Virus record (IMG/VR): IMGVR_UViG_3300023284_002577
Span: 1-37,128 of that record
Direction: 5' to 3' (one strand)
DNA from: a virus
Length of the DNA: 37,128 nt
The notes under the pieces were generated by a model. The model made no database searches. It saw only the letters and a list, made by a program, of their open reading frames with translations, and was not told where the DNA came from. The translations under genes and the position numbers were made by a program. Positions 26,968 to 29,175 of this stretch are shown here, in pieces (position 1 is the first letter of the stretch; every line of letters begins with the position of its first letter).

Positions 26968-27103
26968 CTTTCTTCCCATCTGTGAAATTTACTTCAATAT
27001 CGATTTGAGAAAAGTCTGCATTTGAATTTAGTATTTTTCTAACCAACTCATTTAAAAGTAGCATACTGGCATTATGCGTATTATCTTTTGGGTCAATTCT
27101 CAT
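26957..27103 (-). CDS. Small hypothetical protein (48 aa)
   Basis: ATG at 27103 overlaps the upstream stop by 11 nt. Translation MRIDPKDNTHNASMLLLNELVRKILNSNADFSQIDIEVNFTDGKKDEV. Below the ORF-track cutoff. Confidence 0.35.
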   Translation of the reverse strand: MRIDPKDNTHNASMLLLNELVRKILNSNADFSQIDIEVNFTDGKKDEV

Positions 27104-27455
27104 TAGTATTTTGTTCATTTTTTTTCTCCAATTTTAAAATTAATTTATTGTACAAATCCACTTGTTCTTGGACTTCTTCTCTGGACTTTATTAGGTCCCC
27201 TTTTTCTTTTTTAAACATCCTATTTTTTATATCTTTCTTTGAAATAAGTTGGTGAAATTCTTTAAAAATATCCCATATTTCTTCATCGCTAAAGTAAGCG
27301 CCTTTAGGTAATTCAAATCGTATCTGAAGTGATCTCAAACAACCATTACAATAAGAAGAGACATTGTAACTCTGAAGATATTTAGTGTCTTTTACTATAT
27401 GAGGAGAGTCCGAAGGAGTTCCACAGATAAGGCACCTTAATTTTTTATCTTCCAT
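27093..27455 (-). CDS. Zinc-ribbon protein (CxxC...CxxC) with C-terminal coiled coil
   Basis: Start set at MEDKKLRCLICG (ATG 27455), because a Lar-like ORF ends at 27445. Motifs CLICG...CNGC. Confidence 0.55.
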   Translation of the reverse strand: MEDKKLRCLICGTPSDSPHIVKDTKYLQSYNVSSYCNGCLRSLQIRFELPKGAYFSDEEIWDIFKEFHQLISKKDIKNRMFKKEKGDLIKSREEVQEQVDLYNKLILKLEKKNEQNTNEN

Positions 27456-27615
27456 TTTCTTTCTCTTCCTCCTTAAAGGATAGGATGAATGCAGCCCCAC
27501 AATTCTCGCAGGTCACGGCCCATTCCCGTTTTCCTTTTAAACCACAAATAGGCTTTAAATAGTCCCGGGGGCTTCCGAAAATTCCGCACCAAGGGCATTC
27601 AATTTTATCATTCAT
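27445..27615 (-). CDS. Lar-like (restriction-alleviation family) zinc-ribbon protein, 56 aa, absent from the ORF track
   Basis: MNDKIECPWCGIFGSPRDYLKPICGLKGKREWAVTCENCGAAF: the CPxCG...W.V.C.NCGA layout typical of Lar-family proteins. Confidence 0.5.
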   Translation of the reverse strand: MNDKIECPWCGIFGSPRDYLKPICGLKGKREWAVTCENCGAAFILSFKEEEKENGR

Positions 27616-27731
27616 TATACTCTTCCAATTTCTATAAGGTCTGGTTTTTTTCGTTCAAGCTCTATTTCTTCATACATCTCTAATATCTCCGTTATCGTAA
27701 ATTTAGCGTTTAACAACCCTTTCATTATCAT
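27615..27731 (-). CDS. Possible 38-aa ORF
   Basis: MIMKGLLNAKFTITEILEMYEEIELERKKPDLIEIGRV with a TAATG junction to the next gene. A competing 26-aa ORF exists in another frame. Confidence 0.25.
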   Translation of the reverse strand: MIMKGLLNAKFTITEILEMYEEIELERKKPDLIEIGRV

Positions 27732-27785
27732 TCGTAAGTGATCTTTTCTTTCGATTTGTTTTGTAGAGTAGACAATCACTCATTT

Positions 27786-27908
27786 TTATCCTTGCGGGGT
27801 AATGAATCCCATAATTTGATTAAAGGCATAGTCTGTATAGATACCCCAAGACGGACAGACTTCTTCAGGAGGGGCACCACACTCTGGACATCGTTTTAGT
27901 TTAGTCAT
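27786..27908 (-). CDS. Mini zinc-knuckle protein (40 aa)
   Basis: MTKLKRCPECGAPPEEVCPSWG...; ATGACTAA overlap with the upstream stop. Confidence 0.4.
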   Translation of the reverse strand: MTKLKRCPECGAPPEEVCPSWGIYTDYAFNQIMGFITPQG

Positions 27909-28278
27909 TTTCTATAGCCTCTATTAGGTTCTTCAGATGCTCTAGGAGACAAAATAATGCGCGATTTACAAAGATCGTATACATACGATTATCCACTATG
28001 ACTTTCAGAAGACGACAAATATAATTAGAATTTTTTTCGATTTCTGATCTCGCCTCAGCTTTTTGAAATATCTGCACAAAAACCGCGTAGTAATTCTCAA
28101 ATGTTGTTCTATATCTCTTAAAGGTCTCACAATCGTCCTTTCCCTCTTTTCGAATTTCTTGCAGTTTAATTTTTATCTCTTTAAGTTCTGTCACTATAGG
28201 ATTTTCTTTTTTTCTGGGGAGTTCATCCCACCACTTACAAAGTAAATCTTTCAGTTCTTTAAAATCTAAATCAGTCAT
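27901..28278 (-). CDS. Hypothetical helical protein
   Basis: Start set at MTDLDF (ATG 28278; ATGACTGA overlap with the upstream stop). Confidence 0.6.
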   Translation of the reverse strand: MTDLDFKELKDLLCKWWDELPRKKENPIVTELKEIKIKLQEIRKEGKDDCETFKRYRTTFENYYAVFVQIFQKAEARSEIEKNSNYICRLLKVIVDNRMYTIFVNRALFCLLEHLKNLIEAIEND

Positions 28279-28450
28279 TTTCAATCTCCTTAATTTTCTT
28301 TTCAATCTCTATTATCTTTTTATCAAAATAATCTAACATTAATTTTGTATGACGTTCGTCTTTCTGTATGGTTTGTTTTAACCCTAAAGAAAATCCGGTT
28401 AATATAACCACGATGCATAATATTAGAAAGTTTAGTATTAGGTTAGTCAT
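28271..28450 (-). CDS. Small membrane-anchored coiled-coil protein (59 aa)
   Basis: MTNLILNFLILCIVVILTGFSLG... then Lys/Glu-rich. ATGACTAA overlap with the upstream stop. Confidence 0.55.
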   Translation of the reverse strand: MTNLILNFLILCIVVILTGFSLGLKQTIQKDERHTKLMLDYFDKKIIEIEKKIKEIEND

Positions 28451-28688
28451 TTTTGATTTCCCTTTTTTCTTTAATGGATGTAGGAAAGTCATACCACATT
28501 TTAATTAAATATCCATCATATTTTCTTTTAGTCTCGTTATGTATATCCAAGGGAAATCCTATTCTTATACAAAATTTACACTGGTCACAACATATTTCCG
28601 TGGCTAGATACTCAGACCAATCTATAGGATATTGGTCAGGGGTTTTCGTGGTCTGGCAGCAGGGACATTTTAGTTCTTTGTTAGTCAT
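28443..28688 (-). CDS. Cys4 zinc-ribbon protein, Lar-like; paralogue of 28933..29175
   Basis: MTNKELKCPCCQ...ICCDQCKF.IRIGFPLD...TKRKYD.YLIKMW aligns along its whole length with the 80-aa paralogue. Confidence 0.65.
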   Translation of the reverse strand: MTNKELKCPCCQTTKTPDQYPIDWSEYLATEICCDQCKFCIRIGFPLDIHNETKRKYDGYLIKMWYDFPTSIKEKREIKND

Positions 28689-28936
28689 TATAAATTTCCT
28701 TCAAATGTAGTTCTATTCCACGCTTCTCTTAGCAGGGGTAGTGTTATTTCGTCAAGGTGAACTGAATACTGGGATTTCATCAGTTTGACTTGCAATTTAC
28801 ATTCAAAACATCCTAAATACAAATACTCTTCGTCGTTTTTAAAATATGCAAAGTTTCCACAAGAAGGACAGGTCTTACGTTTACCCGTGTTAGAAAATCT
28901 CTCTATCTCGAAAATTGTATAGGGGTATCTGCTCAT
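28688..28936 (-). CDS. Lar-like restriction-alleviation-family zinc-ribbon protein
   Basis: CPSCGNFAYF...YLGCFECK...LLREAWNRT: CPxCG...C.xC...(E)AWNR is the hallmark of the Lar family. Confidence 0.6.
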   Translation of the reverse strand: MSRYPYTIFEIERFSNTGKRKTCPSCGNFAYFKNDEEYLYLGCFECKLQVKLMKSQYSVHLDEITLPLLREAWNRTTFEGNL

Positions 28937-29175
28937 GTTAAGTCCGTTGATTTATGGTCAATAGCTTTTGGAGATTCCTTCCACATTTTAATTAAATATT
29001 GATCATATTTTCTTTTAGTCTCTTTAGGCATATCCAATGGAAATCCCATCCTGATATAAAACTGACAGTGGTCACAACATATTTGTGTGGCCACATAGCC
29101 GTCCCAATCTATATTAGGCAACGAAAGGGATCTCGGGGATCCGCAGCACGGGCATTTTAGTTCTTTCTTAGTCAT
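28933..29175 (-). CDS. Cys4 zinc-ribbon protein, Lar-like; paralogue of 28443..28688
   Basis: MTKKELKCPCCGS...ICCDHCQFYIRMGFPLDMPKETKRKYDQYLIKMW. Confidence 0.65.
   Translation of the reverse strand: MTKKELKCPCCGSPRSLSLPNIDWDGYVATQICCDHCQFYIRMGFPLDMPKETKRKYDQYLIKMWKESPKAIDHKSTDLT

Follow-up and report, generated by a model that had tools for sequence, protein, structure and literature searches.

The viral record IMGVR_UViG_3300023284_002577 of IMG/VR, analyzed here over its full 37,128 nucleotides (the window), carries on its minus strand, between positions 27093 and 29175, a cluster of small cysteine-rich genes that a first-pass annotation had described as an expanded family of zinc-ribbon proteins, several with hallmarks of the restriction alleviation protein Lar. 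We label the cysteine-containing open reading frames (ORFs) of this cluster A to F in order of rising coordinate, and three more remote ones on the same strand G, H and I; all nine are present at the positions that had been listed for them. Our analysis places one of these proteins, E, in the Lar/RalR superfamily, as a divergent member that scores below the thresholds of curated profiles. Its neighbors D and F, B and a degenerate C, together with a ribbon module found only in a related contig, are probably more divergent offshoots built on the same type of ribbon as E.

Scanning all six frames of the window returned 266 ORFs of at least 35 amino acids, six of which contain the pattern CxxC-x(8-40)-CxxC: A, B, D, E and F, which all lie on the minus strand within the 2.1 kb between 27093 and 29175, and G, at 22355. 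Because block-shuffled windows hold 0.11 ± 0.34 such ORFs each, with a maximum of two, against the six observed, the clustering is far above chance. The claim of at least six CxxC...CxxC proteins within 2 kb stands for five of them, and fails for C (27786-27908), which has one CxxC and a further single cysteine.

Two of the genes, F (28933..29175) and D (28443..28688), encode zinc-ribbon proteins of 80 and 81 amino acids with the layout CPCC...CCDxC (CPCC...CCDHC...LIKMW in F). As had been proposed, they are full-length paralogs, with 60% identity over 75 amino acids (E=3e-35), all cysteines conserved, and a ratio of nonsynonymous to synonymous substitution rates (dN/dS) of 0.66. Between them lies E (28688..28936, 82 amino acids), in which CPSCG and CFEC (C23, C26, C43 and C46) are followed by a 24-residue linker and an EAWNR helix, the arrangement that had been singled out as a Lar signature. 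B (27445..27615), an ORF that had been described as CPWCG...W.V.CENCGA and reads CPWCG...WAVTCENCGA, encodes a 56-residue Cys4 zinc ribbon, CPWCG...CENCG (C7, C10, C36 and C39), that lacks a Trp-helix and appears weakly Lar-like. A (27093..27455, 120 amino acids) has the layout CLIC-x24-CNGC (C8, C11, C36 and C39), an RCLICG knuckle without the proline, and a charged C-terminal half. This zinc-ribbon candidate shows no detectable relation to Lar or to the other members, and we read it as a Cys4 protein unrelated to Lar; neither A nor E has a significant tblastn match among phages. Zinc binding by the cluster proteins is predicted from their sequences.

A search with the D/F alignment found one other protein, P0003, encoded on a 16.4-kb ENA metagenome contig (L004) that is a mosaic close relative of the window, and comparison with this contig helps to interpret C (27776..27908), a degenerate Lar-like gene spread over two frames. 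The first frame (27786-27908) encodes 40 amino acids, MTKLKRCPECG plus one further cysteine, for three cysteines in total. The second (27776-27880) has LIKLWDSLPRKDKNE at its end and a stop that overlaps the following gene's GTG; for C, the motif LIKLWDSLPRK is encoded only in another reading frame. In L004, the homolog of C is a 54-residue protein that has lost the cysteines and kept ELKKCP...ELWNLFPR. Since the second frame matches this homolog with its ...ELWNLFPR ending, C is best read as a frame-shifted or degenerate copy, and the frameshift could also stem from misassembly at a run of CCCC or GGGG.

Curated profiles give the Lar assignment no direct confirmation. No window protein reaches the gathering score of 28.6 bits on PF14354, where F scores 14.9, E 12.0 and B 11.4 bits and A, C and D have no match. 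On TIGR03655, with a cutoff of 39.6 bits, F scores 17.7 and B 15.1 bits, this being B's top NCBIfam match, and E has none. Lar of Rac itself, taken as a control from NC_000913, where it is annotated as toxin RalR, scores 53.5 and 55.3 bits on the two profiles. More broadly, scans of the candidate zinc-ribbon proteins against Pfam, PHROGs and NCBIfam gave sub-threshold matches only, among them PHROG 599 ('Lar-like') to E at E=0.013.

The case for E comes from more sensitive comparisons. A word-index protein search with E returned E alone, and phmmer, run exhaustively against 1.84 billion representative proteins, gave one credible match beyond E itself, P0007 (E=1.9e-5), with 36% identity over E residues 17-76. 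P0007 is built of two Lar domains in tandem, with a PF14354 score of 51.8 bits. Two phmmer matches with higher scores, P0005 and P0006, were set aside as spurious, since both are long repeat proteins. Profile-profile comparison by hhalign aligned E to an 11-sequence Lar alignment at 96.7% probability over 56 columns that take in both knuckles and the WNR motif, and the probability was 94.9% for E without the P0007 rows. Across Lar alignments the values for E were 95-97% over 52-59 columns, the WNR helix included, with EAWNRTT aligned to the family's WNRRT within a predicted helix at residues 61-75. None of 100 cysteine-preserving shuffles reached the observed hhalign score for E, and the same held for F and B. 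Identity between E and RalR is approximately 25-30%.

For the other members the resemblance is more local, so that the claim of Lar hallmarks in several proteins holds for E, through indirect evidence, and extends in D/F, B and C to the zinc ribbon or the first knuckle only. D/F aligned to Lar at 87-95% over 32-37 columns of ribbon (87-94% for F, and 33-90% for D depending on the alignment), B at 70-86%, and C at 88-91% over 17-20 columns only. The shared element is an N-terminal [LV]K-x-CPxCG knuckle, which reads KTCPSCG in E, LKCPCCG in F, LKCPCCQ in D, ECPWCG in B and KRCPECG in C; in one alignment (A6) the columns for K, C, P and C do not vary, and only D departs from the G. The 'CPCC' and 'CCxxC' variants of D/F also occur in Lar proteins that pass the threshold. 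The two knuckles stand 16 residues apart in E, 22 apart in D and F and 25 apart in B, and C has no second knuckle. MAFFT paired the LIKMW-x3-P of D/F with the Trp of the W-N-[RK]-R helix of Lar, a pairing that lies outside the hhalign alignments, and B has no such motif. We read F as a probable divergent Lar-like ribbon.

A custom hidden Markov model built from the Lar alignment separated these proteins from all 432 six-frame ORFs of the window and L004. By E-value it ranked E first (6e-6), followed by a 180-residue L004 protein (3.7e-5), C and B (0.0035 each), the L004 copy of D/F (0.023) and F (0.061). These six are the only matches below E=0.1, and the background, which includes A, G, H and I, begins at 0.7. 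Mutual hhalign probabilities among the members were 1-54% apart from the D/F pair, and we therefore rejected the idea that the cluster is one recently expanded family: family membership holds for D/F, and the others are not detectably related beyond an 'ELK-CP-CG' knuckle. G, H and I, which had been offered as distant members, have scores at or near background against Lar alignments and the custom model, and we rejected them too; they show no detectable relation to the cluster or to Lar, with A, G and H below 20% in every hhalign run against Lar and I at 6-25%. H (21150-21524, minus strand) and I (20617-20973, minus strand) have the different layout CxxC-x(28-30)-CxC, as in 'CKKC...ECSCDEKE' and 'CNEC...SCKCIEED'. 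These two may be related to each other, are not Lar-like, and gave no significant match when compared pairwise.

Structure prediction points the same way for E. AlphaFold2 predicts three strands and a helix at residues 61-75 for E, with a predicted local distance difference test score (pLDDT) of 73-85 in the core. The top three named Foldseek matches of this model in BFVD are all 'restriction alleviation protein (Lar)', with probabilities of 0.97-1.0 and E-values of 0.011-0.043. Against the PDB, Foldseek with the E model found nothing significant, the nearest folds being the RPB9 and ELOF1 ribbons at non-significant E-values, and a profile search of the PDB with the Lar alignment returned generic ribbons at E>0.01 only, and no solved Lar structure by sequence. 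The model of F, with four strands and a C-terminal helix, is of low confidence (pLDDT 53) and was too poor for a structure search.

Comparison with L004 shows that the cluster turns over fast. L004 lacks both E and A, and has a single D/F gene whose first ~165 nucleotides match F (at 27-30 of every 30 positions compared) and whose last ~80 nucleotides are identical to D, with the crossover inside a stretch common to both paralogs. Since this gene is an F-5'/D-3' chimera, E would most simply have been lost in L004 by recombination between the D and F paralogs. The gene at 27901..28278 (minus strand), which in the window encodes a 125-residue protein starting with an 'LCKWWDELPRK' Trp-helix, has an L004 homolog with 51 extra codons, seen as a clean 153-nucleotide in-frame indel in the DNA alignment. 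The added module, 'ELKPCPRCGN...C-x4-C', stands directly before the shared helix. The N-terminus of this 180-residue L004 protein has Lar as its top Pfam match (18.1 bits) and aligns to Lar at 92-94% in hhalign. B is present in L004 with its four liganding cysteines kept and the loop between them diverged (dN/dS 0.92 overall), and between paralogs and genomes alike the liganding cysteines are conserved and the loops vary. Loss of E, absence of A and in-frame gain or loss of a ribbon module are the changes that together make up this turnover. L004 also has an extra first gene (1776-2093, plus strand) that is absent from the window; it encodes a 105-residue cysteine-containing protein (MPCYYPPG...CQVCMKAC...) and lies between the leader and the hydrophobic peptide gene.

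The genes of the cluster are tightly packed and translationally coupled, and several share one junction sequence. The string AAAATGACTRA, which joins the stop of one gene to the ATG of the next ('...ND* / MT...' boundaries), occurs in four copies on the minus strand (27901-27911, 28271-28281, 28443-28453 and 29168-29178), where chance would give 0.07. Translational coupling may explain it, and it may also serve as a recombination linker. A similar repeated junction (family D6) occurs at 34010, 34218 and 34958.

Upstream of the cluster lies a promoter/operator-like block (29439..29490, minus strand), recognized by a consensus scan, by inverted repeats and by its near-identity to L004. It combines TTGAAT-17-TATACT with repeated or palindromic TATCCAAGATAA elements that overlap the -35/-10 match, and it is essentially identical in L004 with diverged flanks; we infer a promoter/operator function from these features. 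A conserved non-coding leader follows (~29283-29365, minus strand), near-identical to that of L004; it holds an imperfect hairpin (CCGGACTGGGATGAA...TTCATTCCGGTCC) shortly ahead of the first gene. Next come a Shine-Dalgarno sequence and the genes for a 36-residue peptide, F, E and D. The peptide gene (29172..29282, minus strand) encodes a hydrophobic product (MDLIFVILIMWLGIQVHWIRKDIRALKDRLGIKEIK) with a 35-residue homolog in L004, and its stop overlaps the start of F (AAAATGACTAA). The cluster corresponds to genes 2-10 of the minus-strand array, which opens directly downstream of the promoter/operator-like block, and its promoter-proximal placement, as had been suggested, is well supported by the sequence. 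Two further products encoded within the cluster on the minus strand are not zinc ribbons: a 59-residue membrane-type protein (28271..28450; MTNLILNFLILCIVVILTGF...), which is near-identical in L004 and whose ATG overlaps the D stop, and a cysteine-free protein of 54 residues (27615..27779) that is conserved in L004.

The window is a complete and novel tailed-phage genome of ~37 kb. It represents the whole contig, and because its first 144 nucleotides (1-144) are repeated with 100% identity at 36985-37128, the genome, of ~36,984 bp, is circularly closed or terminally redundant. Searching 50,697 GenBank phage records with the window DNA gave zero matches, tblastn with the putative major capsid protein found nothing, and the large terminase has 35% identity to the nearest phage record. 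Structural genes occupy the plus strand from ~1 to 20640, and an uninterrupted minus-strand array runs from ~29380 down to 20617 and encodes a YqaJ-type exonuclease, a RecT-like protein and a helix-turn-helix (HTH) protein. Divergent to this array, from 29634, runs the gene of a 262-residue protein with a weak match of RepA-like type. Because scans for related loci in IMG/VR, GTDB genomes and JGI metagenomes, with RecT, the RepA-like protein, the large terminase (TerL), F and the D/F alignment as queries, yielded nothing useful, the host was not identified.

Other parts of the genome also hold repeated small genes. In the structural module, four tandem paralogous genes of ~137-148 amino acids lie at 8782-10480 (plus strand) with a period of ~430 nucleotides, and their copies are 67-81% identical in DNA to the reference copy (families D1 and D4). 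On the other genome arm, 32611-33802 (plus strand) encodes seven consecutive acidic proteins of ~60 amino acids each with common N-terminal motifs (such as 'IYKIGFKDA', 'LYKRGFKDG', 'YLDGYMQGALDA' and 'YWDGYEQGAEDA'), a second expanded small-protein family. The ORF-poor stretch after the RepA-like gene contains a tRNA-Ser(CGA) predicted by ARAGORN at 31064-31134 (plus strand; 49.8 bits in Rfam) and a second, weaker tRNA-like match of 99 nucleotides at 30788-30886 (plus strand; 31.7 bits).

Comparison with Lar/RalR of the E. coli prophage Rac brings out both likeness and difference. The Rac protein has 64 amino acids, against 56-82 here, and combines a K-x-CPxCG knuckle, a second CxxC ~16-20 residues on, and a C-terminal W-N-[RK]-R-T helix, an order that E repeats as KTCPSCG...CFEC...EAWNRTT; both genes also sit in an early or recombination region of their (pro)phage, adjoining recT and exo genes. 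Unlike the Rac protein, all window proteins fall under the curated thresholds. E has a 20-residue N-terminal extension and ~12 extra residues between ribbon and helix, D/F have extra cysteines (CPCC, CCDxC), a longer loop between the knuckles and LIKMW-x3-P rather than WNRR, and B is without the helix.

A parallel in arrangement is the unrelated metagenomic element L007, the contig of ENA ERZ25067561 that encodes P0007, where three to four consecutive PF14354 genes follow an HTH gene at 5574-6876 (plus strand). They encode a two-domain protein of 144 residues (56 bits), the 130-residue two-domain P0007 itself (51.8 bits), and one or two further ORFs (25.4 and 22.8 bits). As at our locus, the arrays and tandem fusions of other uncultured mobile elements (L007, P0007 and P0025) place consecutive Lar-type ribbon genes or domains after an HTH regulator gene, with CPCCG and CCxxC variants and with long ribbon-to-helix linkers like that of E. 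They differ in that two of the L007 proteins score above the PF14354 threshold, and a WN[RS]R helix is also retained in the two that score lower, whereas the window members have drifted much further from the family consensus and from one another and are separate small genes instead of two-domain fusions. Because L007 also carries a Lar array, the grouping of Lar modules into arrays within regulatory or early regions is a recurring arrangement. A typical Lar query finds one copy per genome in GenBank phages, at tblastn sensitivity.

To our knowledge, Ral of phage lambda is not a Cys4 ribbon, and no relation to the cluster in sequence or fold is expected; it is a functional precedent only, for a small early anti-restriction protein. 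Lambda Ral is reported to alleviate type I restriction and to enhance modification (King & Murray 1995; Toothman 1981, cited in PMC4041452). The same paper credits King & Murray 1995 with the report of restriction alleviation by Lar, and describes Lar as RalR, a non-specific DNase toxin under small RNA (RalA) control (PMC4041452). Recent phage papers name Lar only as an annotation, and in the polyvalent-protein paper of Aravind 'lar' matched only inside other words, with nothing on Lar.

We propose, at a probability of about 0.5, that the cluster is a hypervariable block of immediate-early accessory genes in which E is of Lar type, D/F, B and C are offshoots of it and A is unrelated, and whose likeliest role is anti-restriction or anti-defense. 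In this model the leftward operon would start at ~29440, with its first ten genes forming a hypervariable block dominated by small zinc-ribbon proteins. Its expression would be early, a timing suggested by the recombination and regulator genes that neighbor the cluster, and the products would serve as accessory proteins of the immediate-early phase. On the analogy of the Rac prophage protein Lar, each would fold around one zinc ion and bind a host target, most likely a restriction-modification complex or another nucleic-acid-directed defense complex, which would be blunted before it attacks phage DNA. The repertoire would be reshuffled by recombination, both between paralogs and at conserved gene junctions. 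An anti-restriction or anti-defense role is plausible, and we favor it as the most likely function because of the Lar analogy, the operon position and the rapid turnover.

Several observations weigh against this proposal. No window protein reaches the curated PF14354 or TIGR03655 threshold, and the members, D/F excepted, show no detectable relation to one another. The similarity of D/F, B and C to Lar is confined to the ribbon or first knuckle, which as a motif is common to many zinc-ribbon families; F has its best Pfam match in the Brz ribbon, and for B generic zinc ribbons score equal to Lar. The N-terminal similarity could stem in part from the conserved start/stop junction AAAATGACTRA. The structural support for E is qualified by a model built from a Lar-containing alignment and by Foldseek E-values of only ~0.01-0.04. 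As to function, the mechanism of Lar is itself disputed, given its other description as the DNase toxin RalR (PMC4041452), no host could be assigned to the phage, and the support comes from sequence and analogy throughout.

The cluster could also be read, less probably, as generic small zinc-ribbon proteins with mixed and unrelated roles, such as DNA- or RNA-binding regulators of phage or host transcription, replication or translation; E alone among them would be tied to Lar, and they would form no anti-defense arsenal. Every Lar profile score is sub-threshold, the Brz match of F is to a transcriptional regulator ribbon (21.5 bits), for C the top match is a 'putative DNA-binding phage zinc finger' at 18.9 bits and for B there are many generic ribbons, the RPB9 and ELOF1 ribbons are the folds nearest to E in the PDB, the members are mutually unrelated beyond the first knuckle, and the operon is shared with an HTH protein, RecT and an exonuclease. 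Yet the alignment of E to Lar spans the full domain including WNR, the custom Lar model selects exactly these ORFs among 432, and differences in single genes, present in one of two near-identical genomes and absent from the other, are seen more typically in accessory genes than in core regulators. That the ORFs or their cysteine patterns arose by chance, or are remnants without function, is very improbable, and is largely refuted for A, B, D, E and F. It would suit C, which is frame-shifted or degenerate and has an L004 homolog without cysteines, and the fairly high dN/dS values of 0.66 for D/F and 0.92 for B; set against these are six ORFs where 0.11 are expected per window, tight packing and translational coupling of the genes, and liganding cysteines that are all conserved across paralogs and genomes while the loops vary.

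Affinity to Lar also raises the unlikely prospect that these proteins, E first among them, are RalR-like toxins or host-takeover nucleases that cut DNA non-specifically, either for the breakdown of host DNA or as toxin modules under antisense-RNA control. E is closest to the Lar/RalR family, whose founding gene (b1348) is annotated 'endodeoxyribonuclease toxin RalR', with the small RNA antitoxin RalA (PMC4041452). Neither an antitoxin-like RNA nor an above-chance convergent promoter was seen in the region, where promoter-like sites number 13 against 11.1 expected; moreover, E is only ~25-30% identical to RalR, no nuclease active site is identifiable in its sequence, and the gene is dispensable in the sister genome. 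A last idea, improbable in our estimate, is a recombination-driven 'cassette array' of Lar-type ribbons, in which the D/F paralogs and the AAAATGACTRA junctions act as crossover points and each ribbon is directed against a different defense. If so, ribbon modules would be gained, lost and fused within a single generation of recombination, and Lar-type ribbons would be a general modular anti-defense scaffold, not a single anti-type-I factor.

The accessory block that we propose is a variation on a common theme of phage proteins, not a new kind of system. Lar-type zinc ribbons are annotated in very many phages and are almost unstudied beyond the single protein of Rac. The locus offers a compact natural test set, with about five diverged ribbons in one early operon and a sister genome that differs by E, A and one module. 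If members of the cluster do counter particular defense systems, the family would be a useful source of small anti-defense proteins, and the gains and losses at this locus would serve as an example of how such repertoires evolve. Should they counter none, the 'restriction alleviation' annotation that has been so widely propagated among phages would need to be revised.

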